Position numbers and translations under genes: made by a program
Virus record (IMG/VR): IMGVR_UViG_2548876808_000001
Location: 174-64,173 of that record
Strand: one strand, 5' to 3'
Origin: a virus
Taxonomy: Duplodnaviria; Caudoviricetes
DNA: 64,000 bases
Shown: positions 23,023 through 62,395 of the stretch, in pieces
How positions within the stretch are numbered: the stretch's first letter is position 1
Layout of the letters: every line of letters starts with the position of its first letter
Notes under the pieces: model-generated
Database searches by the model: none
The model's input: only the letters and a program-made list of their open reading frames with translations
What the model was told of the DNA's origin: nothing

Positions 23023-23062
23023 GGAACAGCAAAGCGGTCACATCTGTTTTGAGTGAGATAAT
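23023..23062 (+). promoter_or_regulatory. late promoter motif 1 (tape measure)
   Basis: GGAACA-N28-GATAAT. Confidence 0.7.
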
Positions 23063-23095
23063 TTAAGGATTATTAAGCACATAAGGACTTACATT

Positions 23096-25438
23096 ATGAA
23101 TATCTCAGATAGGACCATCTTAGACTACGATGCCAGCGGCTTCATCGTTGGTATCGATCGTATGAGCAAGGGGATCGATAACGTCAGTGATAATACTGAT
23201 GAAATCATCCAAATACTGAAGGCGCAGCGGCAAGTAAGTGACACGCGCATGATCGAACTTGCCCGCGCTGTCAGAGCGATTGAACATCAAATCAGCATCA
23301 ACAATAATCGTAAAAGATCGAGCGAGAGTGGTGGGACACGTCGCGTTCTACCTCCTTCTAACGATACTAGCAGCAATGATCGCATATCAAATAGCGCGCC
23401 CATACATCGTCAACGAGCATCTGACAGAAGCTCAAGCGCTGGAAGTAATGCTGAAGCGGACAACCGAGCAATTAATAGGCGCTCAAGGATCACTAGCGAT
23501 ATTGGTAGTGAGCAACCACCTCAAAGTGACACCGACAGCACTCAAGGGCGCAGGAATAGCGCTGCTAATCGTCAGCGTGACGCTAATGGCCGGTTCACTG
23601 GCGGTAGCACCATCACTGAAGGATCAACCAGCTCTAGGAGTGGTTTCGGTAGAGGTATTGGCAGTACTAATACCAGTGGCGTAGACCCATTAATTGATAG
23701 TTTCAATGAAGCTAAGGATCTGCTGTCGCCACTTACTCGAGGCGCTGGTATGATTGGACGTGGGGCCAAGCTCAGCATATCTAAGCTAAGATCGCTCAAG
23801 CGACGCGAACCCTTGCCAGCGGATCAGTCTCGCCATAACAACGAGAACGAAAAACTGCTCGATAAAATATGGAAGGCTGTTCTTCGATCAGATCGAGGGG
23901 GCGGTAGTGGGGGTGGTTTACTAGGCGGCTTGCTTGGTGGTGGTCGTAATCGTCGTCGTGGGGGGCGAGGCGGCGTTGGCGGTGGTCTTAAGAAGCTGCT
24001 AAAGAAAGTAGGTGGCTTTAAAGGGTTAAGCGTCTTAGCAGGGCTGGCAGGATCAGCTGCCCTGGCAATGGACTGGGACAATCTTGATCATAAGGGTAAG
24101 TCGGCTGGTGTCGGTGGTCTTGCTGGCATGGGCGTGGGTGGCCTAATTGGAGGCACACTTGGCGCAGTCGGTGGCCCAATGGGAATAGCGGCAGGCGCAG
24201 CAATCGGTGGCTGGCTGGGCAGTGAAGGCGGTGAGTGGCTTGGTACCGTCGCTTCACCTCACATCGACAGCTGGACACAAAGCATGATCAGATACAATCT
24301 ACCTGATAAGATGAGTAGTGTTTGGGACGAAGGTATCAAGCCGTTCTTTGCGACTATGATAAGTGCCGCTAGTAACTTTTACGAAGCCTCCTTATCCAAA
24401 GTCTCTGCTGCTATTGATAATGTAGGCAATTTTATTGAAGGCGGTGTAGACGGTATAACTTCTGCAAACGCTGGTGCTAATGGCGCGTCACCAGCACAAT
24501 TAACCAAGCAACAAAATCAGCGACAAATGATGGTTTATGATTCATTCAGAAACGCTGGCTTGTCAGATGCACAGTCACGCGCTATGACAGCGGAAGTAGG
24601 ACGTGAAAATGGATATCAAGATAAATACTTGTTCGGTGGTCATAGTGATCCTGCAAACAACGAATACAATCTTGGTATGTTTTCGTGGCAGAAAGATAGG
24701 GGTAAGAAGCTATACAAGCACTTAAACGGTAAAGGTTTAATAAAAAACGGTAAAATTATTGAGTCACAAGAAGCGCTTAATGAGCAAGCAAAATTTGCTG
24801 TTAATGAGATGCAAACCACTAAAGATTATAGCCGGACTAAACGCGAGTTTTTAGAAAATCCTAATGTAAGTTATGGCAAAGCAACCGAGGTTTTAGGCCG
24901 CAACTATATCCGGTGGCGTCATGATGACCCTAAATACGCAAAGCATCATCAATACCGTGATCAATACAAAGCAGCGCTTGATAAGCAGCTGAAGCCTATT
25001 GAAGATACGAATATCATTGATGAAGCTAAAGACAAAGCCCATAAGGCTGGTACTGCTGTAAGAGAAGCTGTTAAGTCTAGCGCATCGAATGCTAAAGGTT
25101 ACACTGGCAGCTTGATGGGACCTGAAACCAACAAGTTGATTAGGGATAATATTCAACCAACTATACCTGCCAGCAACGATGATGCGTTAGTATTTAAATC
25201 GGCGCTGGGTGTTGCAGCTGGTGGTAGTAGTAGAGGTTATACGCCGCCATCATTACCCACCAAGCCAATGCTTGAGATTCCTAAAATGCCACGTATAAGC
25301 CAGCGTTTGGATAGTGGGAGCGATAATAAACCTATGTTTATCCAAAGCAGCAATGATACAATTTCTCAAAATGTATCAGACAGAGGTTTAGCACATGCAA
25401 TTACGGGCGGGATTGGCAAGGATAGGTACTATGGTTAG
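23096..25438 (+). CDS. tape measure protein with phage-tail lysozyme domain (P1 Sit-like)
   Basis: Gly/Ala-rich hydrophobic middle; AGLSDAQSRAMTAEVGRENG...LGMFSWQKDRGKKL...QAKFAVNEM muramidase-like domain. Confidence 0.8.
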   Translation: MNISDRTILDYDASGFIVGIDRMSKGIDNVSDNTDEIIQILKAQRQVSDTRMIELARAVRAIEHQISINNNRKRSSESGGTRRVLPPSNDTSSNDRISNSAPIHRQRASDRSSSAGSNAEADNRAINRRSRITSDIGSEQPPQSDTDSTQGRRNSAANRQRDANGRFTGGSTITEGSTSSRSGFGRGIGSTNTSGVDPLIDSFNEAKDLLSPLTRGAGMIGRGAKLSISKLRSLKRREPLPADQSRHNNENEKLLDKIWKAVLRSDRGGGSGGGLLGGLLGGGRNRRRGGRGGVGGGLKKLLKKVGGFKGLSVLAGLAGSAALAMDWDNLDHKGKSAGVGGLAGMGVGGLIGGTLGAVGGPMGIAAGAAIGGWLGSEGGEWLGTVASPHIDSWTQSMIRYNLPDKMSSVWDEGIKPFFATMISAASNFYEASLSKVSAAIDNVGNFIEGGVDGITSANAGANGASPAQLTKQQNQRQMMVYDSFRNAGLSDAQSRAMTAEVGRENGYQDKYLFGGHSDPANNEYNLGMFSWQKDRGKKLYKHLNGKGLIKNGKIIESQEALNEQAKFAVNEMQTTKDYSRTKREFLENPNVSYGKATEVLGRNYIRWRHDDPKYAKHHQYRDQYKAALDKQLKPIEDTNIIDEAKDKAHKAGTAVREAVKSSASNAKGYTGSLMGPETNKLIRDNIQPTIPASNDDALVFKSALGVAAGGSSRGYTPPSLPTKPMLEIPKMPRISQRLDSGSDNKPMFIQSSNDTISQNVSDRGLAHAITGGIGKDRYYG

Positions 25439-25745
25439 TTTGTCATTAGGCTTATTCACGTCTGTGCTGGCAAGTGATGACTATGATTGTACGCAGTTAA
25501 TGTATGAGCATGGATTAGCTACGTCAGCGCAGATGAATTGCGGATATGAAAGTTACAGTGAAGCTGTAATTAGTAAAGCCAGTCAATGTATTGCGCTGGC
25601 AGAAGAACATGGTGAGTCAGGTCGATTGAAAGAAACTTTAAAAGAAGGGTTGGCTGATTTTCAAGCAGAGTATGAAGATGCCAGCAATAAAAAAGAGATA
25701 TGTAGTGGATTTGCTGATCAGTTTTCACTATTTGTAAGACCGTGA
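25395..25745 (+). CDS. secreted hypothetical protein (moron)
   Basis: Signal-peptide-like N-terminus, four cysteines. Confidence 0.55.
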   Translation: MQLRAGLARIGTMVSLSLGLFTSVLASDDYDCTQLMYEHGLATSAQMNCGYESYSEAVISKASQCIALAEEHGESGRLKETLKEGLADFQAEYEDASNKKEICSGFADQFSLFVRP

Positions 25746-25819
25746 AAACATGAATGTGTGAAGAAGGGCTTGCGCTTAAAGTGCAGCCCTATTTTTTCAA
25801 CTAAAATTAAGAGAGCTCA

Positions 25820-26953
25820 ATGAAAATTTCTTCAGATATGCCACCCTTTGGTGACATCCTTAATGCAGGTATTCAGTCAGTCAAACAGTTGTGTAATCGA
25901 ACCAATGGAATTACATCTAAAGCTTTTGATAAGACGGTGAGAGAAATTGCAGGAATTACAGATGATCATTTAAAAGTATCTTTTGTAGATCCTGAGTTTC
26001 CTATACATGAAGATGAAGACATGATTGATTCTTGTTATGACTATTTAACTGGGGTAATGCTAACTTGTCTTGTTGCAATAGGCGCCATAAAGAGCGAAAT
26101 TTTTAATATTGAAGCGAATCTAGGACGTTCTTCTGTCCATCTCATCCCCTTCAATAGTAGGATTACTCCTGAGAATCTAACAAAAATAGATCCTTTTGGT
26201 AAAATTTATTTTTGGCTGGCAGGTGATAATTTTGTAAATCATCGACACTCTGATGTTTCTTCTAATACATATGAATCGAAACTAGATAGATTTGATTCTA
26301 GGAGTTTTCGAGTATTACGTGAGGTTAATAAATCTGCTTATGGGGAAAAAGGTGATCCTTTAATCAATCATTTAATTAGCGAAACGATGCGTCGTACTTC
26401 TGTATTCATGAACAACTACGCCAATGTAATTGCAGCGAACGACTATGTAAAAGTAACTCCGAAAATGATATTAGATGAGATTTTCCATTTAACTCCATTA
26501 CAGTTTGAGCATCTTTGTTTAAATGTAGTTGAAACCTCGTTAAAACGCGAAGATCCAAATGCTACTTTCAGTTCAAGACATACAGGACAGAGTAATGATG
26601 GCGGAATAGATGGTATTATTAAGCAAGACTGTGGCGCTGGCGAGATTCATACTTATTATATTCAAGCTAAACAGTACAGCGAAGGCAACACTATATCTAA
26701 TAAAGAACTGCGCAATTTTGTTGGTGGTTTTACACCTGATATCAAGTACCATCACGGTATATTTATTACTACAAGTGAATTTACCAAGCCAGCCCAAGAT
26801 TATGCTAAAAAATTAGAAAGTCATAGTTTGACTTTAATTAATAAAATGGCCTTGCTAGATCTAATGTTGGAACATGAGATAGGGTTAGAGAAAGTACAGA
26901 CAGAAACGTTAGTCATGAATAAGTCGTTCTTTAGAGAATTGCGAAAGAATTAA
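25820..26953 (+). CDS. mrr: Mrr-like (type IV) restriction endonuclease
   Basis: HTGQSNDGGIDGII...YIQAKQY...ELRNFVGG...GIFITTSEFTKPAQDYA Mrr catalytic domain. Confidence 0.88.
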   Translation: MKISSDMPPFGDILNAGIQSVKQLCNRTNGITSKAFDKTVREIAGITDDHLKVSFVDPEFPIHEDEDMIDSCYDYLTGVMLTCLVAIGAIKSEIFNIEANLGRSSVHLIPFNSRITPENLTKIDPFGKIYFWLAGDNFVNHRHSDVSSNTYESKLDRFDSRSFRVLREVNKSAYGEKGDPLINHLISETMRRTSVFMNNYANVIAANDYVKVTPKMILDEIFHLTPLQFEHLCLNVVETSLKREDPNATFSSRHTGQSNDGGIDGIIKQDCGAGEIHTYYIQAKQYSEGNTISNKELRNFVGGFTPDIKYHHGIFITTSEFTKPAQDYAKKLESHSLTLINKMALLDLMLEHEIGLEKVQTETLVMNKSFFRELRKN

Positions 26954-26968
26954 TGTCTAAGAAGAATT

Positions 26969-26996
26969 AACCCACCGCATAATCGGTGGGTTTTTT
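26969..26996 (+). terminator. intrinsic terminator
   Basis: AACCCACCG-CATAAT-CGGTGGGTT followed by a T run. Confidence 0.8.
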
Positions 26997-27092
26997 ACTA
27001 TTATGGGGATGGTTAATATATTTTTTAGGTATGAACTTGTAGTTTCCTATATGCTAAATTAAGTATAAATTAACCTACATTTGGAAAATTCT

Positions 27093-29303
27093 ATGAGAAC
27101 TGAGCAAGAAATTTTTGATCAACTAGAGTTACTTAGTACCCAAGAAGGTTTTTGGGAAGTTGTCGCTTTTTTTTGTTGTAAAGACACTTTCATTTACTTT
27201 TCTAGTGAAAAGTTAGATAGAGAAGCTTTCTCACAAGTTTACGATAGGACTCGGCTATCTAGAACTGAACTTTCGACACTCATTGGCCTTGCATGCAAAA
27301 GTGGATTTAATGATAAAAAATTGGAATTAGATAAATTAAAAGAAAAAGCTGAGCTTGTCTGGCGGCTTCTTGACGAATTACACCATAGCTTTTATCCCTC
27401 ACTAGATATTGAAGCTTTGTCTGCAAAATTTGATAACAAAGATAGTGATGATATACCTGACTTTGGTGAATTCATACGAGATATAAATCCAACTATAGAT
27501 AAGAATCACTTTATGCGTGAAGCTATTTTCTACGGAGGGGACGGAGTTTTTAAACATCAATATAGAGATTTAGCTAAACGTCGTTATTCTCTTGATGAAG
27601 ATTGGATTGAAGCACATAAAGGTTTTAGAATTTCGCAAGCAGTTGATATTATTTCTGCAATAGAACAAATTCAATTAGAGAAAGTTAATACAGCTGTCTC
27701 TTCAGTAGAAGGTTGGCCATTACCATACCATCTACCTTTATTTAGTTTCAATGTCTCCGAAGTTGTAACTCAAAGTGGTTTGAATGAAGGAGTTGTCAGA
27801 GCTGTGATTGCTGCATTTTCGGCTAAGGCTGAAGAAGGGATGAAATGCTTTAAATCCGTAGATGACTTTAACTACAAAAATGCTTTTCCTATAATCAAAG
27901 TTGATGAAGATAACTTTGTAAGCTTTCAAGCATATAGCTTATGGGAAGCTCTCTATGAAAATCCGTTCTTTTGGTTTAACGCAGATGACGCTTATAAAGT
28001 TATAGCAAGTGACCATAGAGGAGCTTTTACAGAAGATTTTACTGCTGAGCGTTTAGCACTAGTGTTTGGTGAAGAAAATGTTCTAACCAACATAGATATC
28101 TTCGATGGTAAAGACAAGGCGGGAGAAATCGATGTCTTGGTCACATTTGGCGAATTCGCGATAGTGGTACAAGCCAAATCCAAAAAGCTCACTATTGAAG
28201 CTCGTAAAGGAAATAGTAAGCAACTTGAAAGTGATTTTAAAAAAGCAATTCAAGATGCTTATAACCAAGCGCACTTGTGCAGCCAACTGTTACAGAAAGA
28301 CGGATGTGTGTATAGAGATGAATCTGGCAACGAAATCAATATTCCATCTAGTTTTAAGACGATATTTCCTGTTTGTATTGTGTCCGATCACTTTCCTGCT
28401 CTTTCTGCTCAAGCTAGACACTTTCTAAAGTATCAAACTACCGATGTAATAAAGCACCCTTATGTAATGGATGTTTTTTTAATTGATATGATCACAGAAA
28501 TGCTGGCATCTCCATTATTGGTTTTAGACTACCTCATTAAGCGAAGCGACTATGGTGAGTCAGTCCTTTCTAACCATGAGCTAGTAATACTTTCAATATA
28601 CATAAAGCAAAACCTTTATTTCAGTGAAAACCCTGACCTAATTATGCTGGATGATGATATTTCGGTAGATTTGGAGTTAGCGATGCTGGCTAGAAGGGAC
28701 GGTTATGAAGGCGAAACGACACCTGAAGGTTTACTTACTGCTCATAAAAATACCCATATAGGAGGAATAATCGATGACATTAAATTATCGACTGATTATG
28801 GTCTCCAGCAGCTAGGGTTTCTACTTCTATCAATGAGTAGTGATACCATTGACCAACTTAATGAATTCATTTCAAAGATGGTTGCTCAATTTAAAAAGGA
28901 CTATCGCCACCATGATATTTCTCTTCCTTTTCCCGAGGAAAAAACAGGTTTAACAATTCATTGTAATGAAAACGAAAGTGATACTGCATATAAGAAGCTT
29001 GTTGCCCATTGCGAGAAACGAAAATACACTTACAAAGCAGAATCTTGGGTAGGGTGCTGTTTTAGTCCCAACCAAGGTAGATTCCGATTTGCTTCTTACC
29101 ATGAAAGTAAGTGGGTCAAATCAGATGAGATGGAAAAGTTGGTAGCGAATCTCAAGCCTACTTCATCAGCAGTTCGTATAAAAGATATAAAAAAACTCTC
29201 CTTTGGCCAAAAGCCACAGATAACTCATGAAAAGATAGGAAGAAATGAGCCTTGTCCATGCGGTAATGATAAAAAGTACAAGCACTGCTGTATAAACAAG
29301 TAG
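27093..29303 (+). CDS. NERD/PD-(D/E)xK nuclease-domain protein with C-terminal SEC-C zinc motif
   Basis: GEIDVLVTFGEFAIVVQAKSKK nuclease motif; KIGRNEPCPCGNDKKYKHCC SEC-C motif; probable start ATG 27093. Confidence 0.8.
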   Translation: MRTEQEIFDQLELLSTQEGFWEVVAFFCCKDTFIYFSSEKLDREAFSQVYDRTRLSRTELSTLIGLACKSGFNDKKLELDKLKEKAELVWRLLDELHHSFYPSLDIEALSAKFDNKDSDDIPDFGEFIRDINPTIDKNHFMREAIFYGGDGVFKHQYRDLAKRRYSLDEDWIEAHKGFRISQAVDIISAIEQIQLEKVNTAVSSVEGWPLPYHLPLFSFNVSEVVTQSGLNEGVVRAVIAAFSAKAEEGMKCFKSVDDFNYKNAFPIIKVDEDNFVSFQAYSLWEALYENPFFWFNADDAYKVIASDHRGAFTEDFTAERLALVFGEENVLTNIDIFDGKDKAGEIDVLVTFGEFAIVVQAKSKKLTIEARKGNSKQLESDFKKAIQDAYNQAHLCSQLLQKDGCVYRDESGNEINIPSSFKTIFPVCIVSDHFPALSAQARHFLKYQTTDVIKHPYVMDVFLIDMITEMLASPLLVLDYLIKRSDYGESVLSNHELVILSIYIKQNLYFSENPDLIMLDDDISVDLELAMLARRDGYEGETTPEGLLTAHKNTHIGGIIDDIKLSTDYGLQQLGFLLLSMSSDTIDQLNEFISKMVAQFKKDYRHHDISLPFPEEKTGLTIHCNENESDTAYKKLVAHCEKRKYTYKAESWVGCCFSPNQGRFRFASYHESKWVKSDEMEKLVANLKPTSSAVRIKDIKKLSFGQKPQITHEKIGRNEPCPCGNDKKYKHCCINK

Positions 29304-29342
29304 GAACACCCCACAAGCCAGCCTCAAAACGCCCCTTAAACT
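29303..29342 (+). promoter_or_regulatory. late promoter motif 2 (prohead protease operon)
   Basis: GGAACA-N28-TAAACT; the -10 overlaps a terminator-like hairpin at 29331-29377. Confidence 0.75.
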
Positions 29343-29378
29343 AGACGTATTCAACGTTTACTTTAAGGGGCTTTTTTC

Positions 29379-30314
29379 ATGCCAAAAAAAACAGAGCTAA
29401 TTACTTACAATCTAGCTAATCGGGACCGTAAGCACAACGGCATCGATCGCTCAGATATGGACATTAGATCCGCAATCAATCATATCAATTCACCCGGTGT
29501 CCAAGAGCTTGTAAATAGTGGCGACCTATTCGGCTATTACGGCCACGAAATCCGCGCACGATTTGGTATGAATCCGCCTGATTCTTGGATTGGACCTAAC
29601 GGCGAAACAATCCGTATTGAGCCCGCTATTCGCACTATCAAATTGTCAGCAGATAATGACGGCAATGTCAGTGCGAAGCACGAGTTTCTAGATACCGATA
29701 GTGGCAAATATTCACGTAACTTGTACCTTGGCAAAGCTGGCGGATTTAGTAGTGCCATCACGCGTAAGCGTGGCAATGCTGGCATGTATGACGTGACAGG
29801 TTTTCACGGTTTTGATTACGTACGCCAGCCAAACTACAACACCAATCGTGGCAATGCCTTATTTGACTCCTTATTCATCGAAGGAGAGGAAGGTGAGCTT
29901 TGTTTCGACAGTATTACTAACGTCACGCCTCAGCAAGCCGCTATCAAGTCAGCACTTGAGACGGCAATCTTGCATCAATACGACAACATTAATGGGGCTA
30001 TAAGCGCGCAGGCAATGATTGAGCATTATCAAAATGAAGCCGCGCAAGCTCAAGACGCATATTTAACCCGCCAGCAAAATCTTGAAAGACTCAGAACGCG
30101 CCGCGGCGACCGTGAAGACGAAATACTTGATGGCCTAATCTGCCAATCAACTTCATTTGATTCGGTGCAAGCCGAGTGGGATAGCTTTGCTTTTGACAGT
30201 ACCAGTGATCAAGACCTCAAAACAGCTTTGAGTGCTGCAGAAGAACAAGCGGAACGTTTAGAACTCGCAGAACGCCGTGACCGCCGCTCTATTTTCAGTC
30301 GCCTACGTCGTTAA
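29379..30314 (+). CDS. pro: prohead protease, P1 Pro-like
   Basis: GDLFGYYGH, AGGFSS and FHGFDYVRQPNY match P1 Pro blocks recalled from memory. Confidence 0.8.
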   Translation: MPKKTELITYNLANRDRKHNGIDRSDMDIRSAINHINSPGVQELVNSGDLFGYYGHEIRARFGMNPPDSWIGPNGETIRIEPAIRTIKLSADNDGNVSAKHEFLDTDSGKYSRNLYLGKAGGFSSAITRKRGNAGMYDVTGFHGFDYVRQPNYNTNRGNALFDSLFIEGEEGELCFDSITNVTPQQAAIKSALETAILHQYDNINGAISAQAMIEHYQNEAAQAQDAYLTRQQNLERLRTRRGDREDEILDGLICQSTSFDSVQAEWDSFAFDSTSDQDLKTALSAAEEQAERLELAERRDRRSIFSRLRR

Positions 30315-30326
30315 TTGGAGCATGTT

Positions 30327-31223
30327 ATGAGTCAAGAACATCATTTAATGTCGCCTCAAGAGTCCATCCAAATCGCGTGGGGTAAGAAGCTTCGTGATTT
30401 CAGGCAATGGTGCTCGCCAGCTGGCCAGCAATCAATCAGAGACTGGAAAACACGCCGCGTTGAAGGTGCAATCGTGGTTGGCAAAACCAGCATGATTGAT
30501 GATGCAGAAGCCTTGCTTAGGTCTGTACAAGAAAACGATAACGCTACCGCCAGTAACGACCCCACAAACTCAGGCACATCTGTCAGTTTGCCAGTCATGA
30601 TTACTGCCATCAGTGGCGTTGAGTCACCACCTGAAAGGGATATAGTAATTGGCCAACCGTACTGGCAAAACATTGTCGTACCAACTGACCCTTTGCAGCG
30701 TGTGGTGCAACTACGCACTACGCCAGTCACTTATCGTTGTCAGATTGCTTTCTTTTGCTCAGACCCTCACGCGGCATCCTCCATTGCCAACCAGTTTGTC
30801 AGCTTTTGGAAAAACGAAGCAAAGCGTGGCTTTGACGTGTCTTACGATTTGGCCAACGCTGGCACGACCATTATTAGAGAGAGTTGGAATTTTCGAGTTG
30901 TCGAAAATACGCTGTTCCCTGACAAAATTGATATTGGGGTTAAAACAATCTATGGCACGACCGTAGATTGCTTGATTGTAGGACTTGAACCCACAGTCGT
31001 CGGTCTTGGCGGGCTTGATGATGACATTACAGACACAGGTGAACCGGACGGCAGCATACCGCCAGGTCTACCGCCAATTGATGGCGGGCGTGATCCTGAT
31101 GATGAGCTAAACAGTTTCGTCGTTGAGGCTGATGTGATCGAAGAGGCTACAGACACTCATACACGCGTCACCATAGATCCTATCACTGGCCAAATCACTG
31201 AAAGCCACATAGGGGGTTATTAG
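30327..31223 (+). CDS. virion morphogenesis protein, possibly tail terminator/neck
   Basis: About 298 aa in the late operon; RBS GGAG before ATG 30327. Confidence 0.55.
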   Translation: MSQEHHLMSPQESIQIAWGKKLRDFRQWCSPAGQQSIRDWKTRRVEGAIVVGKTSMIDDAEALLRSVQENDNATASNDPTNSGTSVSLPVMITAISGVESPPERDIVIGQPYWQNIVVPTDPLQRVVQLRTTPVTYRCQIAFFCSDPHAASSIANQFVSFWKNEAKRGFDVSYDLANAGTTIIRESWNFRVVENTLFPDKIDIGVKTIYGTTVDCLIVGLEPTVVGLGGLDDDITDTGEPDGSIPPGLPPIDGGRDPDDELNSFVVEADVIEEATDTHTRVTIDPITGQITESHIGGY

Positions 31224-31225
31224 TT

Positions 31226-31765
31226 ATGAGCGAACAAACGCCTAAAAAGCCAATCAACTCAAAAGTCGTTGTTATTGACGCGCGAGCAGCAACTTACGAC
31301 GGCGACGCGGTAAGAGTGTTAGCAGCAACGCTTGTAGACAGCGGGAAAATCAAAATACAACGCTCAGCAGAATGGAAAGAACAGCTAGTCAATACGCCAA
31401 ACACCCTTGTCGTCACAGATACGCCAAATGTATTTAACCATTGGGGTATGTCTTTTGATGAGCGAGAGCAGATGCGTGAAGTCATGGCTTCCTATAAAGC
31501 TGCAGTAGCAAGCAACTTATTGTTGATTGAGCCTGCATTGAAACAATACGACCCACGCAACGTCATACAGACGCGCAAAGTTGATGACAAGGGGCGTGCA
31601 CTAGACTTTGACAGCATGGGTATTAATAACGGTCACATTGCCGTATTGCTTGCCGTCTGGGCAGCTAGAAAGGCACACGGTGGCTATGTAATCACACGAC
31701 CAAGCGAGCAGCTGCAAAATGACGCTGGAGACGACAGCTATGACATGATGCCGTTCAGCATCTAA
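31226..31765 (+). CDS. hypothetical late protein
   Basis: 179 aa, immediately before the terminase large subunit. Confidence 0.7.
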   Translation: MSEQTPKKPINSKVVVIDARAATYDGDAVRVLAATLVDSGKIKIQRSAEWKEQLVNTPNTLVVTDTPNVFNHWGMSFDEREQMREVMASYKAAVASNLLLIEPALKQYDPRNVIQTRKVDDKGRALDFDSMGINNGHIAVLLAVWAARKAHGGYVITRPSEQLQNDAGDDSYDMMPFSI

Positions 31766-31775
31766 GTGAGTAGCA

Positions 31776-33768: not shown

Positions 33769-33807
33769 GGAACACGCCAGCGGCGCCGTGAGATTAGCCG
33801 TTAGAAT
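33769..33807 (+). promoter_or_regulatory. late promoter motif 3 (tail fibre operon)
   Basis: GGAACA-N27-TAGAAT. Confidence 0.65.
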
Positions 33808-36122: not shown

Positions 36123-36126
36123 CGTT

Positions 36127-49886: not shown

Positions 49887-49922
49887 AAGCCTATCATTAA
49901 TCTAATTGATAAGGCCTACCTT

Positions 49923-50549: not shown

Positions 50550-50558
50550 GGCGTTCAT

Positions 50559-51053: not shown

Positions 51054-51065
51054 GGTTGTGACCCA

Positions 51066-52606: not shown

Positions 52607-52622
52607 TTAATAGGCGGTAATA

Positions 52623-54227
52623 ATGAACTTTTTACACACAATGGCCAATATGCTGATTAGCGACCGCGAATTTAAACAAACGCATACATCAGCATCGATA
52701 CACGATGTAAACCGTAACTACGATGCGCTTAATCAATTTGAGCTTGGCACGCCAAATGGTCCCGATAAAAAACCGCGTACACGCCAGCAGATTTACGCAC
52801 TATGGGAGATCATGCAAAAAGACCCACAAGTTGCAGAAGCGTTAAGTTTGCATGTGACCGCAGCGCTTGGCGGGCATGAAACAACAGGAGATATGATCTT
52901 TTTAACGTCTCATGACCGGGTAAGAGGAAAGGGCCGACGTGCAAAAGAATTGCGTGACAGGGTTGAGCGTGAGGCGCGTTATATTGCGCCTATCATTAAT
53001 AGAATCGCTTTTGCTATGGCACGTCAGGCCGTAGGCTACGGGGACAGCTATTCCCGTATCTATACAGATAAGAGAGCTGGTGTGGTAGATATTATGAACA
53101 ATAGGCATACCGCCTCGCCACTCATTATGCCGTTTGAGCAAGCTGGACGCACAATCGGCTTTCATGCGTTAGAAGAAGAAAATTTAGAGCGATCCATTGC
53201 CAAACTTACGCCAATGCAGATACTACGGGTAAAAATGCCGCGTATCGAAAACGTGCCACAAATCCCGCTGCAGGTATGGCAAGACGCAAAAGTGTTGACT
53301 CATGACTTACGTAGCGATAGTCCGCTACTGCCCTCAGAGGTTGGTGGCTCCTTCTTATATCCGATCGAGGATCCATGGAAGGATGTCACAATTAGCCGTG
53401 CTGGTTTAAACAATCAGCAGATCGCAGACAGCGTAAGACAAACTTTTCTGACGTTAAATATGGAAAGCATGCCAGCTGATCAGCAAAAGAAATACACAGC
53501 AGGTTTAACCAAGATGCTAACCAAATACCGCGACCAGATTGAAGAGGCATTCAAGGGTGGGGAAGCGCTTTATGGCACTAAACACCACGTTCTACCACAG
53601 TGGGGTGAAAAGCAGATACTACAATCGGTCGGGGATTTATCACAGCGTAATGCACCACTCAATGAAGGCCTATTGATGCTGAACCTACGCCGGTTAGCGG
53701 GTGGTCTTGGTATTGACTTAGCGCTGATGGGTTGGGCTGACATGTTGGCGGGTGGGTTAGGAGATGGTGCATCCTTTCAAACGTCTGCACAGATTATGCG
53801 TCGTTCAACATTTATCAGACAAGCCAATATCGATGCGTACAATCATGTTATGAGCATTCATTGGGGTATTAAATATGGCGAATATTTCGAACCACAGGAC
53901 TATCCATGGCAGTTTGATTTCTACAGCGATCAGAATGCGGCAGCCACTCAAGCATTGAACAACAAGCAAAGCCGTGCTAATACGACGACAATTCAGATGA
54001 GTGCGGTTCAGATAATTAAAGAGCTTGGCCTTGGGAAAGAAACGTCACAGCTAATTTTAGAGGATGAGATGGGTTACGATATAGGTATAGCTGAACAGAT
54101 TGCTATATCTATCACAAGCCAGCCAGTAATACCTGAAGGCATGGGTATGCCTAATGGAATGGGTGGGCAACCGATGGTAGAAGCTGATGATGAGCTGCCT
54201 GAAATGGAGTTTGATGATGAGGTATAA
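52623..54227 (+). CDS. prt: portal protein, P1 Prt-like
   Basis: 534 aa; VAEALSLHVTAALG and GYGDSYSRIY blocks similar to P1 Prt; acidic tail. Confidence 0.72.
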   Translation: MNFLHTMANMLISDREFKQTHTSASIHDVNRNYDALNQFELGTPNGPDKKPRTRQQIYALWEIMQKDPQVAEALSLHVTAALGGHETTGDMIFLTSHDRVRGKGRRAKELRDRVEREARYIAPIINRIAFAMARQAVGYGDSYSRIYTDKRAGVVDIMNNRHTASPLIMPFEQAGRTIGFHALEEENLERSIAKLTPMQILRVKMPRIENVPQIPLQVWQDAKVLTHDLRSDSPLLPSEVGGSFLYPIEDPWKDVTISRAGLNNQQIADSVRQTFLTLNMESMPADQQKKYTAGLTKMLTKYRDQIEEAFKGGEALYGTKHHVLPQWGEKQILQSVGDLSQRNAPLNEGLLMLNLRRLAGGLGIDLALMGWADMLAGGLGDGASFQTSAQIMRRSTFIRQANIDAYNHVMSIHWGIKYGEYFEPQDYPWQFDFYSDQNAAATQALNNKQSRANTTTIQMSAVQIIKELGLGKETSQLILEDEMGYDIGIAEQIAISITSQPVIPEGMGMPNGMGGQPMVEADDELPEMEFDDEV

Positions 54228-54819
54228 CTTAATGCCAAGTTTTGCTCAGCCTGACTCTAATACTGGCGTCTCTTTCACGTCACCATTGCAATCGCTCAAA
54301 AAGATATACGGTAAGGTCAAAGCGCATGATGTGCTATTACAGTGCATGTATATCGTTAAAATTGAAGATATCTTTAATAACGGTCCAAACATACCTTGGT
54401 TTAAAGATCCGTCATTAGGTTACCTGGTAACTGACGCAAATATCTCTTTTGGTAGTTCAGAAGCGGAAAATTATCATGCTGGCGCGCTACCAGCTGGATA
54501 CTTGACGGTAAAAACGGGTGACGATACAGATATGACGTTTATTGAAACTGGCAATGGCGATATTTTCAAATCTTACAGAGCGTGTCATGAGCTAGCTTTT
54601 AATAAAGATGGGACGGTTAATGAGCCGCGCAAGTATGCATTCAAGTTAACTGTTGCTATGATCAATCATAAGCACCCTGATAAGCCGCCACCAATAACTA
54701 GGTCGTGGCTGGTCGCTGTTAAGAGCGGTAGTGCTGAACCCAATAGCGCTGGTCGAAGCGAGATTGTTAAAGAGCAAATCACATTTCAAAAAGTGCGCCC
54801 ATTAATGTTTGAGAGGTAG
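54217..54819 (+). CDS. tail tube / tube-initiator-like protein
   Basis: MTFIETGNGDI...AFNKDGTVNEPRKY, T4 gp19-like tube fold pattern. Confidence 0.6.
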   Translation: MRYNLMPSFAQPDSNTGVSFTSPLQSLKKIYGKVKAHDVLLQCMYIVKIEDIFNNGPNIPWFKDPSLGYLVTDANISFGSSEAENYHAGALPAGYLTVKTGDDTDMTFIETGNGDIFKSYRACHELAFNKDGTVNEPRKYAFKLTVAMINHKHPDKPPPITRSWLVAVKSGSAEPNSAGRSEIVKEQITFQKVRPLMFER

Positions 54820-54871
54820 TCAGACAGTGATATAGTGAAGTTTTGCTTACTTTATTGCTTCAGGGGTCTTA

Positions 54872-56158
54872 ATGAGTTATGTATGTTCAGATTGTGTCAA
54901 CATAGAGTCTATAAAAAAAGAAGGTGTTTACTCTTCAGAAGAAAAAATATGTTTCTATTGTAATAAAAATAAAGTAGAGGTAATCGATAGAAATGATGTA
55001 ATTGCCTTACTAAGTTCAAGATTTTTAGAGGCTGTCGTTCCATTTTCTGAATGCAGTGAACATGAGCAAGGAATGTATTTTTTTGCTCATGACGAAACAT
55101 TAAATCCTTCAGACATTTTTAATATGATAGATTGGTTAGAGCTTGGATCGGAACAGCTTAGAGATGATTTGTACTGCGAGATTGAAAAATCTTTAGGTAG
55201 TGAGTATGAAGATTTATTTGTTTACGATGATGGTACATTAGATGATGGTAATGAATATGAGGCTAAATGGGATACTTTTATTAGATCAATACATCATAAA
55301 CATAGGTTCTTTAATCATAATGCAAAAACGTTCTTAGACTCATTGTTTGCATTAATACATGAAGATGGAAAAATCATTGATACTGTGATTTATGAGCTAA
55401 ATCCGAACACTCCTATATTTAGGGCAAGAATTGCAAATACAGTAGAAGAAAGAACCGCAATTTATAGTGATCCTGCTAGCCAGCTTGGTGCAGTGCCAAC
55501 TATGCTGGCAGGCGAGCAGCGAATGACACCTACAGGAATTTCAGCATTTTATGCTTCAGATAGTCGAGAAACCTGCTTCAGTGAAGTACGCGCCACTACA
55601 GGAGACATAGTTATGTCTGCTGAGTTTAGAGCTACCGACACACTAAGACTTTTAGATTTAAGTAAATTAAAAGAAGTAAGTCAGATGAGTGTTTGTCCTT
55701 TTGATAAGGACTTTGTAGATAAATCCCATAAGTCTTACTTTATTCAAAGATTGGTATTCTTACTCTCTAAGCCTGCATCTCAAAGGAAAAACTCTGTTTA
55801 TCTTGAAACTCAAGTAATATTTGAATATTTCCGTACATATTTTAGTGAAGGCATATATGGAATTGCATTTAATTCAGTGCAGAATGGTATGGAAGGTATG
55901 AATATTGCTTTATTTCCAGAGTATTCTAAGGTAAGTTCCTTTTCGTACAACAATAAAGAGATTACTGGCTGTAAAGAATATGTAAACAAAGAATTTAATT
56001 TCTATTCTTATAGTGTAGAAACAGGCATTGAAAATAATATTTCAATAAAAAAAGATGAGTACCTAAGATTTATTGACAAATCTATATTGTTGCATCATGT
56101 TACCGCGGTAAAGACCATAACTCAAGATTTTGAAGTAGAGGGTCATGTAGATGAATAA
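54872..56158 (+). CDS. RES-domain protein with Zn-ribbon/HEPN-RES N-terminal domain
   Basis: CSDC...CFYC; IFRAR; QRMTPTGISAFYAS (R), TCFSEVR (E), GIAFNSVQ (S). Confidence 0.85.
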   Translation: MSYVCSDCVNIESIKKEGVYSSEEKICFYCNKNKVEVIDRNDVIALLSSRFLEAVVPFSECSEHEQGMYFFAHDETLNPSDIFNMIDWLELGSEQLRDDLYCEIEKSLGSEYEDLFVYDDGTLDDGNEYEAKWDTFIRSIHHKHRFFNHNAKTFLDSLFALIHEDGKIIDTVIYELNPNTPIFRARIANTVEERTAIYSDPASQLGAVPTMLAGEQRMTPTGISAFYASDSRETCFSEVRATTGDIVMSAEFRATDTLRLLDLSKLKEVSQMSVCPFDKDFVDKSHKSYFIQRLVFLLSKPASQRKNSVYLETQVIFEYFRTYFSEGIYGIAFNSVQNGMEGMNIALFPEYSKVSSFSYNNKEITGCKEYVNKEFNFYSYSVETGIENNISIKKDEYLRFIDKSILLHHVTAVKTITQDFEVEGHVDE

Positions 56159-56698: not shown

Positions 56699-56726
56699 AA
56701 CTAAATCCTACAATTTAAAATATCGG

Positions 56727-56784
56727 TTGACATCAATTATAGTGTCACGTTAATATGTTGTCAATGACATTAAATATAGTGTCA
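56727..56784. promoter_or_regulatory. divergent promoters with two 20-bp palindromic operators
   Basis: TGACA-N10-TGTCA at 56728 and 56765 (18/20 identical); minus-strand TTGACA-N17-TATAAT at 56764-56736; plus-strand TTGACA-N18-TAATAT at 56727-56756. Confidence 0.82.
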
Positions 56785-56868
56785 TTAGAACAGATACAAA
56801 AAAGCCCCATACACTCCCTTCGAAAGTTATGTATGAGGCTACTAACCCAATCGTAAAGAGGAATTAGT

Positions 56869-57702: not shown

Positions 57703-57721
57703 ATAAGTTTTTATAGGCATG

Positions 57722-57752
57722 AAAACCCGCTAATTATTTAGCGGGTTTTTTT
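57722..57752 (+). terminator. intrinsic terminator
   Basis: AAAACCCGCTAA-TTAT-TTAGCGGGTTTT-TTT. Confidence 0.85.
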
Positions 57753-57769: not shown

Positions 57770-57809
57770 GGAACACCCCTAAAGCCGATACCTCAAACCT
57801 TGTCAAAAT
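57770..57809 (+). promoter_or_regulatory. late promoter motif 8 (darA operon)
   Basis: GGAACA-N28-CAAAAT; 57768-57818 is 49/51 identical to 49845-49895. Confidence 0.78.
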
Positions 57810-57845: not shown

Positions 57846-60581
57846 ATGACATACAAAAAAATTCATAAAGCTCGCAGTCATCATCCTACGCGTAAGTCTG
57901 ACGGTACTCAAACCACAAGATACTCACCATATGAAATTGGCATGATCTCAGGCTCACATCGTGACGTGATGGCAATTGTTGCAGACAGTGCGGGTTTCGA
58001 TGGCTTAGGTTTTGATGTAAGCGTTGGTAGTAATGATGATAGCTGGCATGTTTTTAGTGTATTCGATAGCGGTCAATATGTTGACAGTTTGGTGATTGGC
58101 GGCGCACTTGATAATGACCATGCGTTAGCGATTGCTCGAGCACAGCTTGACCATCTAGGCGGCACCAGTTGCGTTATGGTGACTGGCAGCGAGACACAAT
58201 TTGATGCTATGTCAAACGGCACACATGATACCTGGTCCATCGACTCCATAAGCAAGCTTATGAACAATGAGTCGCAAGACAAACCTTACCTACCACTTAT
58301 TACAGCTTCAGAGTTAAATCATGAGGCCAAACGCGTATGTTTTGATGGTGTGCAATGGGATCACGACGCAGGGCTAATCAGTCACGGTGGCAAACTATCT
58401 TCCCTGCAGTTGGATTTAACACGTGCTGATAGCCGTCAGGAGCTTACCAGTAAGTTTGATTTGGCAGGCGAGCTTGCCAGCATCGGCGCAACCCCATTGG
58501 ATGAAAATAGCTTTGATGCGCTAATGGAAACAAAGGCCCGCTTAGATTTGCTTAAAAATCGTCTCTTTGATGCTATGAAACGCGCAAGCAGTACAGACGG
58601 CCTAACAGTTGAATATGTCACGCAGACCAAACCGTTTAAACGTCAAGGCGTTGCTAATATCGCTATCGTTTTTGATTTATCTGATGGTCAAACAGTTTCT
58701 ATATGGTTTCATAATCCTGACAGCACGCCAACCAAGCTGTTGCCTAGCGATATCATGATCAGTTGGAAGTGGATGCTGAACAAGCGCGATGTGACTGCTG
58801 TTCTATCACCCAAGCAAGGTGACAACGTAAGGCTGCCGATCTTGGCCAAACGTATTTTGCTGGTTGCCTCCAAAAATTCTAAACGCTTTAAAGCCACTCA
58901 GGAGCGAAAAATCAAAGAAGAGCAAGAATTGCTTGATGCTCAGAACGAATTGAATGATACAGACGCAACCATTGCACAGCTTGATGCTGACATTGCAGAG
59001 TTAAACGCGAAGATTGATGAGGCAATGAAAGCGCCTAAAGTTGACGATGCTACTGCAAATGAGGTTGATGCTAATGAAGTAGAGGTTATAACTGATTCAG
59101 AGGATGCTTTGCCTGAATTTGAATCTGAATCTACTGACCTTGAGCCTATTGTTATCACAGGTCAAGAAATAGAAGTCGGTGATGATGTAGATTTCAAAAC
59201 TGCCAAAAACAATGCCATGGCTTATTTTGATCAAAATCTAAAAGATAAGGTTGTCTTCTGTCCTGCTATCGATAGTGATGTTTTATTGAGACGCCGCGGT
59301 GGTAAGCATATCGCTAAAGCGAATCATACATTTCGTGAAAAGCTGAAGCTGGTGGCCGCTATTCCTGCAATGATCAAACAGGGAAAATATGGACACTACA
59401 CTGCTTTAAACAAAGATAAAGGCTCTAATATCGAAGGGTATTACGTGCTGAATGTTGACGTGATCGTAGGTGATGACTTAAAGGCAGCAAGAGTAGTGCT
59501 TGAGAAGAACAACGAAGGTAAGGTTTTATATGACATAGGCATAAACAAAAAAGAAGCCTTGGTAGCTCTAGGGGATACTGCCACAAACGAAACGTTTGAT
59601 GGGGTCACCGGATCTAGCCAATACCAAGACTTCTGTGATGAATCTTATCAAGCAGACGATAATGAAGTCAATCAGTTTGACAGAATTAATACAGAAACAA
59701 TGGTTTTGAATCTCTTTTTTGATGATGAATTTGAAACAGAGACTACTAATAAGTCAGGCGCTAATAGCAAAGTAACTGAAGGCCGTGCTAATGAGTCAAC
59801 AACCATTAAAGGCACTAAAATTAGTAGTAAGTTTGCACTGGTCGAAGCTAAAAACCTTATCACTTCACATGATGCTTCAGGTGTGGCCAATCCCAAGTTT
59901 CCGCAAGAGCTGCAGCCGCGCGATCGCAGTGATGAAAAATCAGTCGAATCAATAAAAGCCAATTCAAAGAACCTGGTACCTGAGAAATTAGGCGATACCG
60001 ATCGTGCCGGTAATGGCGCGCCTATCATTGGTGACGACCTTATTGTCGAGAGTGGCAATGGTAGAGCTATAGTCATCAAATCTGCATATGACAATGGAGA
60101 CGCTGATAATTATCGTGCCTGGCTTGTCAACAACGCTGGCAAGTTTGGATTCACAGCCGAGCAAGTTGAGACTTATCAGCAACCGGTGCTGGTGCGTATC
60201 CGCAATACCAAAATGGACAGAATCAGTTTTACGATTGAATCCAATTTAGATGCTGATCCAAAATATTTTAACACTGACGCTGATCAGTTACCTCCCGTTG
60301 TAGCAGAAGAAGAACCAGCCACAGAAGCGCCAGTACCCGTCTCTGAAGAAAAGCCGGCAGCCAATGAACTTGGTGATCGTATCAGTGAAATGGAAACAGT
60401 CGTTAATGCTAATGACTTCGACCCTACGACTATTGATAGCGATGAGCTTGCCAACCTACTAGATCAAGCTGAAGGAGACGAGGTTTTAACAGGTCGAATC
60501 ACTGCAGTTATTGATATCTACCAAGACAAGTTAATCGCCGTCAGTTTGCAGGCACTAACCAATCTTAAGGGTGACCAATAA
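57846..60581 (+). CDS. darA: DarA-like polyvalent head protein (DarA_N + LPD3-like + DdrB-type ParB domain)
   Basis: FKRQGVANIAIVFDLSDGQTVSIWFHNPD...WKWMLNKRDVTAVLSP (DarA_N); ITGQEI...YDIGI (LPD3-like); LITSHD...FPQELQPRDRS...GAPIIGDDLIVESGNGR (DdrB-ParB). Confidence 0.75.
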   Translation: MTYKKIHKARSHHPTRKSDGTQTTRYSPYEIGMISGSHRDVMAIVADSAGFDGLGFDVSVGSNDDSWHVFSVFDSGQYVDSLVIGGALDNDHALAIARAQLDHLGGTSCVMVTGSETQFDAMSNGTHDTWSIDSISKLMNNESQDKPYLPLITASELNHEAKRVCFDGVQWDHDAGLISHGGKLSSLQLDLTRADSRQELTSKFDLAGELASIGATPLDENSFDALMETKARLDLLKNRLFDAMKRASSTDGLTVEYVTQTKPFKRQGVANIAIVFDLSDGQTVSIWFHNPDSTPTKLLPSDIMISWKWMLNKRDVTAVLSPKQGDNVRLPILAKRILLVASKNSKRFKATQERKIKEEQELLDAQNELNDTDATIAQLDADIAELNAKIDEAMKAPKVDDATANEVDANEVEVITDSEDALPEFESESTDLEPIVITGQEIEVGDDVDFKTAKNNAMAYFDQNLKDKVVFCPAIDSDVLLRRRGGKHIAKANHTFREKLKLVAAIPAMIKQGKYGHYTALNKDKGSNIEGYYVLNVDVIVGDDLKAARVVLEKNNEGKVLYDIGINKKEALVALGDTATNETFDGVTGSSQYQDFCDESYQADDNEVNQFDRINTETMVLNLFFDDEFETETTNKSGANSKVTEGRANESTTIKGTKISSKFALVEAKNLITSHDASGVANPKFPQELQPRDRSDEKSVESIKANSKNLVPEKLGDTDRAGNGAPIIGDDLIVESGNGRAIVIKSAYDNGDADNYRAWLVNNAGKFGFTAEQVETYQQPVLVRIRNTKMDRISFTIESNLDADPKYFNTDADQLPPVVAEEEPATEAPVPVSEEKPAANELGDRISEMETVVNANDFDPTTIDSDELANLLDQAEGDEVLTGRITAVIDIYQDKLIAVSLQALTNLKGDQ

Positions 60582-61444
60582 TGGCTGATACGCCAGCCAA
60601 CAATAAAACCAAACGGCCCAATGGTAAAACATTGGGTAGCGATTGGGGCACCCATGGCTTAAACAAAAACCTTGTTGTCAAAATCAGTGCGGTTAAGGAA
60701 GGCAACATAGAGGGCGGGCAAGGAAAGCAGACGTATGACGTTGATACGAGCCAACCAGTCGTTGCCTCACTCTTTGAAGAAGCTGACTTTGCTATCGATT
60801 CGCAGTACACCACGCCTTTTGAATCATCAAATCCTGAAGGCCGGATGCCCAATCTTATGGGCATGATTCAGTCTGGGCAAGCAAACGCCGCCTTTTATAG
60901 TTTCTTTGCGGCCAGTAGTGACCCAAAAGGTGTGGCCTCTTTAATTGCTGAAGGAGGCGCTATTGTCTCTGATTTTTTAGGAGTGGGCGACATATTAAGC
61001 GATGCCCAAACCAGCCTGCAAGGGCTGGCTGGCAAGTCTAATTTTACCAAAATCAATAGCCAGCAGATTTTCACATCATCAAGCTCTATCAGAATTACTG
61101 GCAGCCTCATTTTCCAAGCCTGGGCAGATGCTAAAGCTGAGGTTGAAGACGCGTTAGAGCAATTACAGTGCTGGGCGTCAGCTGTCAGTTTGTCATCAGA
61201 ATCATTGTTAGTGGCCGGATTAACCGATGGTTTTTCAGATGCCATGTTCCCGTCCGTAATTCCAACCTTAGTACAACTCCAATATGGCGGTAAGACCTAC
61301 AACCCAATGGTAATTGAGAGCGTATCAGCGCCAATCACAGCACCAATGAATAAAGACGGTAGCCGTATTGCCGTTAGAGCACAAATAGTATTCCTATCCC
61401 GAACAGCATGGGATCAGCAAAACATTAGAGACATGAGGCGCTAA
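60581..61444 (+). CDS. baseplate tube-fold protein (tube cap/initiator-like)
   Basis: SQYTTPFES, KINSQQIF, PTLVQLQYGGKTYNPMVIESVSAPITAP. Confidence 0.55.
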   Translation: MADTPANNKTKRPNGKTLGSDWGTHGLNKNLVVKISAVKEGNIEGGQGKQTYDVDTSQPVVASLFEEADFAIDSQYTTPFESSNPEGRMPNLMGMIQSGQANAAFYSFFAASSDPKGVASLIAEGGAIVSDFLGVGDILSDAQTSLQGLAGKSNFTKINSQQIFTSSSSIRITGSLIFQAWADAKAEVEDALEQLQCWASAVSLSSESLLVAGLTDGFSDAMFPSVIPTLVQLQYGGKTYNPMVIESVSAPITAPMNKDGSRIAVRAQIVFLSRTAWDQQNIRDMRR

Positions 61445-61446
61445 CC

Positions 61447-62235
61447 ATGAAAACAACTTTATCAGTCCAATTGCTTAACTGTGAATTAACGCTACTTGAT
61501 TTGAATATCGGTCAAGCAATCGATATTGCGCAAATCCCGCAGGAATACAACGAGCGTCGCATAAGTGCATTAATTGGCCATATCACTGATGAACCAATGC
61601 TTGCTGCCAGTCTTACCGTGGAAGAGCGCTATTACTTGCTATTAAATCATCAAGCAGTGTCAGACCACGGCTACAAAGACGATAGCGTCAGTCAAGATTA
61701 CTTTATTGACACCTTGCAATCAGATGTACCTGAAAACTATCAAGTTGGTGACATGTACATTCAACATCTACGCGGCGCGCATGCTTGCGTCCTAGAAGGG
61801 TTATGCGAAAACGTCTTTGAATGGCTATGCGGACAAATGGCTTGCCAGCTGTATGGCGACTTAACAAGCATAGTCGGCGGCTCAGATGAAAACTTAATGT
61901 GGGACCAGGTACTTAGCACATCAACTGACAATGAAATAACCAAGATTGTAAACGATCGATATGAAGTGATTAAGAAATTGTCTGCAACTTCGTCTTCAGC
62001 ATTCAATGAACTTGCGAATGCTTATAACAAAGGATCTCTGCAATTGATGCATTTTGTTGAGATGGGATGCGACAACGAAGGCTTGACACTTATCAAGCAA
62101 GGAGGGGCTGGCATTGTAGAGCCAGCACGATTTCTCGCCCTTAGCTATCTATCAGGGACAGCCGCAAGAATTGCAGAATGCGTTACTAAGAGACGCGATG
62201 GTCATGATGGAACACGGCAAAATGAGCCTGCCTGA
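61447..62235 (+). CDS. tail/baseplate assembly protein (chaperone-like)
   Basis: 262 aa in the late operon. Confidence 0.55.
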   Translation: MKTTLSVQLLNCELTLLDLNIGQAIDIAQIPQEYNERRISALIGHITDEPMLAASLTVEERYYLLLNHQAVSDHGYKDDSVSQDYFIDTLQSDVPENYQVGDMYIQHLRGAHACVLEGLCENVFEWLCGQMACQLYGDLTSIVGGSDENLMWDQVLSTSTDNEITKIVNDRYEVIKKLSATSSSAFNELANAYNKGSLQLMHFVEMGCDNEGLTLIKQGGAGIVEPARFLALSYLSGTAARIAECVTKRRDGHDGTRQNEPA

Positions 62236-62395
62236 AGCGCTTAAAATGGGATTGTCTTTTGTAAAAATGTATCAAAAGTCACCAAGTTTCGATCTGGCAT
62301 CAAAGCAGCTTGAAAACGAAAACAGATATAAGGCCAACGTAATTAATCGACTTGATGGCGTGATAGCAGTATCTCAAGCTCGAGCACGTCGTTAA
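62171..62395 (+). CDS. small tail-assembly-associated protein overlapping the upstream gene in the +1 frame
   Basis: MSLPEALKMGLS motif; frame open from 62120. Confidence 0.5.
   Translation: MQNALLRDAMVMMEHGKMSLPEALKMGLSFVKMYQKSPSFDLASKQLENENRYKANVINRLDGVIAVSQARARR
62209..62247 (+). promoter_or_regulatory. late promoter motif 9 (lysis cassette), embedded in coding sequence
   Basis: GGAACA-N27-TAAAAT, same GGAACACG/N27 variant as 33769. Confidence 0.55.

Follow-up and report, generated by a model that had tools for sequence, protein, structure and literature searches.

Putative late promoters with a GGAAC box in a P1-supergroup provirus and its relatives, and a candidate activator with a clamp-binding-like tail

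The late genes of the provirus in IMG/VR record IMGVR_UViG_2548876808_000001 appear to be organised around nine copies of one promoter-like element, in which a GGAAC box stands at a fixed distance upstream of a hexamer of the sigma70 -10 type. The window analysed here, 64,000 nucleotides in length, comprises all but 173 bases of the 64,173-bp provirus record, which CheckV rates as 98% complete. With moderate confidence, we consider the nine sites to be the sigma70 late promoters of a temperate myovirus of the P1 supergroup, driven by the product of a gene that we call A and probably tied, via the sliding clamp DnaN, to replication.

A preliminary description of this DNA had listed nine copies of GGAACA, each followed by a -10-like hexamer 28 bp further on (27 bp for the copies at 33769 and 62209), and all nine were recovered at exactly these coordinates with the hexamers as claimed. 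GGAACA alone is not enriched, with 18 copies on both strands against 25.7 expected. GGAACAC is found in the window eight times on the plus strand, every time at one of the nine sites, and not at all on the minus strand; the site at 23023 differs and reads GGAACAG, and GGAACACCCCTAAA is common to five sites. When GGAAC was required to be followed after 28 or 29 bp by a hexamer of the form nAnnnT with at least four of six matches to TATAAT, the plus strand gave exactly the nine listed sites and the minus strand a single one; block shuffles gave 1.4 on average and never more than 5.

For comparison we curated 52 boxes in a set of five genomes, consisting of this provirus and four complete relatives that are 55-70% identical. 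GGAACAC is present in these genomes 53 times on the plus strand, where 4.9 (order-2 Markov model) to 21 (base composition) would be expected, and once on the minus strand; an apparent minus-strand depletion is seen against base composition (14.5 expected) but is not significant against the order-2 model (3.0 expected). A hexamer fitting the form given above follows in 52 of 52 cases, at 27 bp in 17 and at 28 bp in 35, and the stricter form nAnAnT at 27 or 28 bp is met at 47 of the 52 sites but at 4% of random positions. In the relatives, orthologous late operons are preceded by the box in the same orientation and at the same distance from the -10, and the flanks and spacer diverge; this comparison supports the anatomy given in the preliminary description and its inference of an activator-dependent late system. 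The genes behind the sites in the four relatives are orthologues of those for the 780-residue ejection protein, the head gene at 29379, the tail fibre, the gene at 38290, the sheath, Hdf, the tube, the DarA-like protein and the lysis genes, and three relatives have an additional site before a gene for about 2300 amino acids that lacks a homologue in the window. Upstream of the sheath gene in 14 IMG/VR relatives (sheath 58-70% identical), GGAACACCCCTAAA and TATACT are found at the same spacing, with different upstream DNA and most of the spacer changed.

The element extends beyond this clade. Acinetobacter phage vB_AbaM_ABMM1 carries TGGAAC[T/C] exactly 29 bp before a cAAAAT-type hexamer upstream of at least 12 late genes, and the same promoter units are present in prophages of Alkanindiges, other Acinetobacter species, Moraxella and Faucicola. 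Since ABMM1 and the other Moraxellaceae prophages retain GGAAC at the same spacing, it is GGAAC, at about -46 to -42 from the predicted start, and not the GGAACA originally named, that forms the core throughout the family; in the present clade the core is extended to GGAACAC(CCCTAAA), and this extension, GGAACAC-CCC-TAAA, reaches about -33. The copies number nine in the window, 9-13 in the relatives and 9-14 per genome overall, with one per operon. The order of the late operons differs among the Moraxellaceae prophages (loci L160-L174 compared with the window), each operon having its own box promoter, and the late cassettes behave as units of shuffling.

The A at position 2 and the T at position 6 of the hexamer, earlier noted as kept in the nine sites, are invariant in all 52 curated sites. 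The earlier failure to see a -35 element is likewise confirmed across the five genomes: the best match to TTGACA with a spacer of 16-18 bp reaches at most three of six positions in 50 of the 52 sites, which is no better than at random positions, and scanning for sigma70 consensus promoters with an obligatory -35 recovers none of the nine. An extended -10 TG is present at 14 of the 52 sites. Consensus sigma70 promoter-like matches are also rarer than in shuffles between 42500 and 62499 (26 versus 47 ± 7.7), and their scarcity may reflect avoidance of constitutive promoters in the late region.

The nine promoters presumably depend on an activator, and the best candidate is the product of gene A (21001-21708, plus strand). 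In this protein of 235 amino acids, an XRE-type helix-turn-helix (HTH) domain (about residues 9-84) is followed by a long helical hairpin (87-195) and then by a disordered tail that contains QYSLPI (210-215). The HTH domain scores 28 bits against Pfam HTH_3 (cut-off 23), and in the AlphaFold2 (AF2) model, compared through VIA, it resembles ImmR, BldD, C.BclI and C.AhdI with Z scores of 10-11 and a root-mean-square deviation of 1.5-1.9 Å over 65-73 residues. Foldseek and VIA gave no informative match for the 110-residue helical hairpin, only the HTH domain being matched; the hairpin probably serves dimerisation.

A and its constant neighbour B (21701-22633, plus strand; 310 amino acids) are the only early genes common to all four relatives that were retrieved in full, and in ABMM1 the pair is represented by gp68 (the A homologue) and gp69 (B), directly before the first late gene. 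Full-length homologues of A were found only in Moraxellaceae or in unclassified metagenome-assembled genomes of Pseudomonadota, and A and B always accompany the same set of virion genes. In the B protein, an N-terminal three-helix HTH precedes a basic and disordered linker and long helices, and the tail is acidic. This architecture and a lead from a language model suggest that B is probably the terminase small subunit; it could conceivably act as a co-activator. It has no similarity to P1 PacA, and Foldseek returned generic coiled coils only. Because B resembles a terminase small subunit, the order A-B mirrors lpa-pacA of P1.

The known late regulators are absent from the provirus. A tblastn search with P1 Lpa against the genome gave nothing below E = 4, BLASTP gave no alignment between A and Lpa, and phrog_1704 is missing; Mor/C (PF08765) has no match at E ≤ 1, and neither the Ogr/Delta zinc finger (PF04606) nor sigma factor regions 2 and 4 (PF04542, PF08281) are present. 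The earlier statement that the motif corresponds to none of the activator systems of P1, P2 and Mu agrees with the lack of Lpa, Ogr and Mor/C genes and, for P1, also with the different layout of its late promoters LPhot and LPpac.

Gene A itself is preceded by a unit that is kept in all relatives, in which a strong terminator (20879-20912) is followed by a GATTATAT-like -10 element (20948-20956) and then by the palindrome CATTG...GCAATG (20960-20980). This unit has no GGAAC box and looks like a separate 'middle' control step. In ABMM1 (locus L156, about 9517-9560), a GGAAC-type promoter lies before the rusA-gp68 operon, which suggests positive autoregulation, and two Acinetobacter loci (L171 and L173, about 9217) have a similar site some 780 bp upstream of their A homologue.

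A novel feature lies in the tail of A. In this clade the tail follows the pattern H..L..D....YQ[YF]S[LIMV]P[LI]P, and in the AF2 model it is disordered, the predicted local distance difference test score of the tail that holds QYSLPI being below 50. An exhaustive profile search added about 65 more distant clusters of full-length A homologues, whose tails carry, in the same place, QLSLPL, QYSLPL, QYTLPF, QLSLAL, QLNLF, QMSLF, QLDIF, QLDVF, QLEVF, QCTLF, QATLF or QPDLF, and gp68 of ABMM1 has QIGLFTE at its C-terminal end. The hexapeptide form (QLxLxL type, e.g., QLSLPL) is one of the two classical clamp-binding forms, as in Hda. The form QL[SD]LF is a classical β-clamp-binding motif (PMC12867686). 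A strict clamp pattern was matched by 20 of 50 tails, compared with 0.64 in composition-preserving shuffles (maximum 4 in 1000), and its density was 8.0 per 1000 amino acids in tails against 0.22 in the protein bodies, a difference of about 36-fold. At the level of sequence, the tail of the A family carries putative motifs for binding the β sliding clamp.

The events that we propose begin with the synthesis of A after induction from its own unit of terminator, GATTATAT-like element and palindromic leader. A would then act as an activator of the class II type, binding the asymmetric box at about -46 to -33 in place of a -35 element and recruiting the host sigma70 RNA polymerase to the -10. Its tail would engage clamps left on replicated phage DNA, and for this reason the virion and lysis genes would be turned on once replication is under way.

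Several observations weigh against this proposal. The box is asymmetric, whereas dimers with an XRE-type HTH usually read palindromes. The GGAAC core does not vary with A, which is 28-35% identical across the family. Because A and B travel with the same virion set, A cannot be separated by co-occurrence from B or from an unrecognised small late protein. One of the nine sites, that at 62209, is located within a coding sequence. About half of the A tails match the motif patterns, and a clamp-binding tail could serve another end, such as interference with host replication.

Some of these points favour a different reader of the box. The sites could be activator-dependent late promoters that are recognised by another phage factor, either B or an unannotated small protein, with A being employed, for example, in the lysis-lysogeny decision or, via the clamp, in replication. 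The conservation of B equals that of A, its N-terminus likewise bears an HTH, there are many open reading frames (ORFs) without known function, and an XRE dimer suits an asymmetric box less well than a reader that is monomeric or heteromeric. Nor does a clamp motif need to mean a role in transcription, since overproduction of Mu C perturbs host replication through the clamp (PMC12867686). However, B has the architecture of a terminase small subunit with an acidic tail, in agreement with the atlas lead, no other DNA-binding gene is common to all relatives, and it is A that occupies the lpa/Q position. We therefore regard another phage factor as an unlikely reader of the box and continue to favour A.

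The core of the box itself raises the question of alternative sigma factors, as GGAAC is the hallmark -35 of promoters used by extracytoplasmic function (ECF) sigma factors. The box could then be the -35 of an ECF-type or other alternative sigma factor of host or phage, with the real -10 located 16-17 bp further on and the TATAAT-like hexamer being incidental. Several sites in the window do have TCAAA- or TCTG-like words about 16 bp past the box, but these are not kept in the relatives, where GGAAC is present and nothing is conserved at 16-17 bp, while the hexamer at 27 or 28 bp is found in 52 of 52 sites. Furthermore, the provirus has no Sigma70_r2 or r4_2 domain, and some of the sites have an extended -10 TG, all of which makes an ECF-type promoter very improbable. 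Readings with other sigma factors were also tried. A sigma54 promoter (TGGAAC-N5-TAAA in -24/-12 geometry) was rejected for lack of a GC at -12 and since the conserved -10 hexamer lies further downstream, and look-alikes of FliA and sigma32 promoters within CCCCTAAAGCCGATA were rejected as they concern single sites only.

All nine sites are on the plus strand. The preliminary description had eight of them as intergenic and 73-99 bp before the first gene of a structural operon, and most of the sites just after a terminator. Eight are indeed intergenic or abut a stop codon, the remaining one (62209) being within the last 27 bp of the gene at 61447-62235, and five directly follow a hairpin with a T-run. 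The distance of 73-99 bp holds if the unit behind 38233 begins at the ATG at 38332, and it does not hold for 62209, for which it is 201 bp. At the former unit, the longest ORF begins at 38290, just 11 nucleotides past the point where the transcript is predicted to start; the ATG at 38332, in the same frame and with the 3' arm of a hairpin before it, fits the relatives better (distances of 90-107 bp) and is likely the true start of this gene for 616 amino acids.

The first promoter (23023-23062) has the GGAACAG box and GATAAT at 28 bp, follows the terminator at 22977-23003 and would serve the gene for a 780-residue ejection or lysozyme-like protein (23096-25438); its orthologues in all four relatives (G001, G002, G003 and G005) read GGAACAC. 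In the second (29303-29342), GGAACAC overlaps the stop codon of the gene at 27081-29303, with TAAACT at 28 bp, ahead of the head and packaging genes at 29379-33743, which include the terminase large subunit. The third (33769-33807; GGAACAC, TAGAAT at 27 bp) stands before the tail-fibre and baseplate operon (33843-38169), and the fourth (38233-38272; GGAACACCCCTAAA box, TAACAT at 28 bp), preceded by a terminator at 38200-38226, before the gene for 616 amino acids just mentioned. The tail sheath gene (43149-44537) is served by the fifth (43076-43115; GGAACACCCCTAAA box, TATACT at 28 bp), and an Hdf-like gene together with baseplate genes (45666-48988) by the sixth (45585-45624; GGAACAC, TACAAT at 28 bp; terminator 45559-45584 upstream). 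The seventh (49847-49886; terminator 49798-49830) and the eighth (57770-57809; terminator 57721-57752) both have the GGAACACCCCTAAA box and the extended -10 TGT-CAAAAT at 28 bp, and they lead the operon from tail tube to portal (49923-56158) and the genes for a DarA-like protein of 911 amino acids and for head proteins (57846-62235), respectively. In the ninth (62209-62247), which lies ahead of the lysis genes (62410-64000), GGAACAC is within the 3' end of 61447-62235, with TAAAAT at 27 bp. This promoter is kept in three relatives (G001, G002 and G005) and is the least certain of the nine, because coding constraint may explain part of its conservation. The 174-bp gap after it could encode, within 62246-62409, a peptide of about 43-50 amino acids whose first ATG overlaps the -10.

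A hairpin is present in most of the leaders; its 5' arm extends over part of the -10/+1 region, and the AGG of the ribosome-binding site lies in its 3' arm. The hairpin at 29331-29377 (plus strand; -23.7 kcal/mol, followed by T6) ends one nucleotide before the ATG at 29379, its 5' arm holding the -10 and its 3' arm the ribosome-binding site, and that at 43107-43148 (plus strand; -16.5 kcal/mol) has a T-rich tail before the ATG at 43149 and holds the TATACT -10 in its 5' arm. Both fold in read-through RNA and cannot form in RNA that begins 7 nucleotides past the -10. Further hairpins between -10 and start codon are found at 38272-38326 and 49889-49915. In the relatives there are compensatory changes in the hairpins, for example GCCTATCA/TGATAAGGC versus CCCTATCA/TGATTAGGG. 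RNAalifold found no consensus structure for seven tube-gene leaders, because the hairpins sit in different registers, and they were judged one sequence at a time. The leader hairpins should terminate or silence read-through RNA and be absent from RNA made from the late promoters. Each late operon would then be an insulated cassette of upstream terminator, box, -10 and leader hairpin, in which, because the 5' arm overlaps the -10/+1 region and the 3' arm holds the ribosome-binding site, the start codon would be open only in transcripts from the late promoter.

A role of the motif other than as a promoter, in RNA or in a different DNA transaction (antitermination, processing, packaging or recombination), has in its favour the strict orientation, the location between operons and the hairpins at each unit, but it is the least probable reading of all, as the upstream terminator in five of nine cases means that read-through RNA would rarely contain the box, the fixed distance to a hexamer with a sigma70 -10 signature defines a promoter, and each genome has 9-14 copies, with one for every operon.

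The gene layout is that of a temperate phage. The integrase (2524-3987) and a LexA-like cI repressor (13506-14288) are encoded on the minus strand, a CII/CP76 gene is also carried, the early operon runs rightward to about 22.9 kb, and from 23 kb on there are genes for the virion and lysis functions of a phage with a contractile tail. Virion families of the P1 type in the window are a PmgG-like, an Hdf-like and a DarA-like protein ('released upon infection') and a sheath of phrog_1036. The closest named phages by portal protein are Acinetobacter phage vB_AbaM_ABMM1 (42%), Xanthomonas phage Rb1 and the P1-like coliphage D6, and a megablast search of 9 kb against phage and plasmid collections gave no match. 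Going by sequence, the host is almost certainly a Psychrobacter, since the named homologues of the regulator encoded by gene A come from this genus. Between the late cassettes, at 25746-29303 and 48989-49766, there are cargo genes with their own terminators and no GGAAC box, encoding an Mrr-like nuclease, a 740-residue protein with a SEC-C tail and a HicA/HicB pair. An immI-like antirepressor module is situated amid the late operons. At 56699-56868 it has two near-perfect sigma70 promoters that stand back to back (TTGACA-17-TATAAT on the minus strand and TTGACA-18-TAATAT on the plus strand), and two TATAGTGTCA repeats (56738-56747 and 56775-56784) are flanked by a small leftward gene and an Ant-like gene.

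Among known systems, the late promoters of P1 are activated by Lpa together with host SspA. The provirus shares with P1 the PmgG-, Hdf- and DarA-like genes, a D6-related portal, many late operons that each have a promoter without a -35, and a candidate activator gene placed directly before a packaging gene, as in lpa-pacA. In contrast, the P1 promoters have a 9-bp inverted-repeat element centred near -22 (LPhot, AAGTTACTT-N9-AATAAT; LPpac), while the box here spans -46 to -33. Controller (C) proteins of restriction-modification systems and lambda cI are class II activators that act from a site abutting or overlapping the -35; they share the HTH fold with A but are small, have palindromic operators and lack a helical hairpin and a clamp tail. 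In T4, the clamp-binding tails of gp55 and gp33 couple late transcription to replication through the clamp gp45, according to the accounts cited in PMC12867686 (PMC2988020 and PMC7892883). T4 is similar in having promoters with a -10 only and clamp-tailed factors, but it replaces sigma70, brings its own clamp and has no upstream box, whereas the provirus combines an upstream box with an ordinary -10, lacks a sigma-like gene and presumably uses the clamp of the host.

The closest functional precedent is the Mu C protein, which activates sigma70 late promoters without a -35, carries the motifs QHDLF and QPDLF, and binds DnaN, the clamp being needed for late transcription in vivo as well as in vitro (Ho and Harshey, PNAS 2026; PMC12867686). 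Relatives of Mor/C generally carry clamp motifs, and the parallel to T4 gp33/gp55-gp45 has been drawn in the same paper. Like Mu, the phage of this provirus is a temperate myovirus, and its several putative late promoters combine a sigma70 -10 with an activator site overlapping the -35 region and have no -35 element; the Mu-type layout, with its activator site at about -30 to -55, fits the nine sites. The A family has apparent clamp motifs of the QL[SD]LF type, with one distant homologue ending in QPDLF as Mu C does. Unlike Mu C, A has an XRE fold with an N-terminal HTH and no PF08765, its box is asymmetric, and there are 9-14 promoters compared to four in Mu. As A is not a Mor/C protein, its resemblance to Mu C would be convergent.

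In conclusion, activator-dependent late promoters without a -35 and clamp-coupled activators are known, while the box, the activator family and its pairing with a clamp-binding tail are new. The claim that the system is undescribed stands insofar as no published description of the promoters or the regulator was found in the literature searched (the words 'promoter' and 'late gene' are absent from the ABMM1 paper), but has to be qualified by the precedent of Mu C and the host clamp. Our findings define a probable late-gene switch for widespread and unstudied temperate phages of the Moraxellaceae, including the isolated Acinetobacter baumannii phage ABMM1; its compact insulated cassettes would explain the free reshuffling of late operons among the relatives and could be used in Acinetobacter and Psychrobacter as orthogonal promoter parts gated by the activator. 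We suggest, tentatively, that it may be a third and independent case of clamp-coupled late transcription after T4 and Mu, in which, throughout a lineage of P1-like Moraxellaceae phages, an XRE-type activator would restrict the firing of 9-14 promoters to DNA that is being replicated. If the clamp link is true, a non-homologous family of activators has converged on the strategy of Mu C, and this would lend weight to the idea that late transcription is often tied to replication by way of the clamp.

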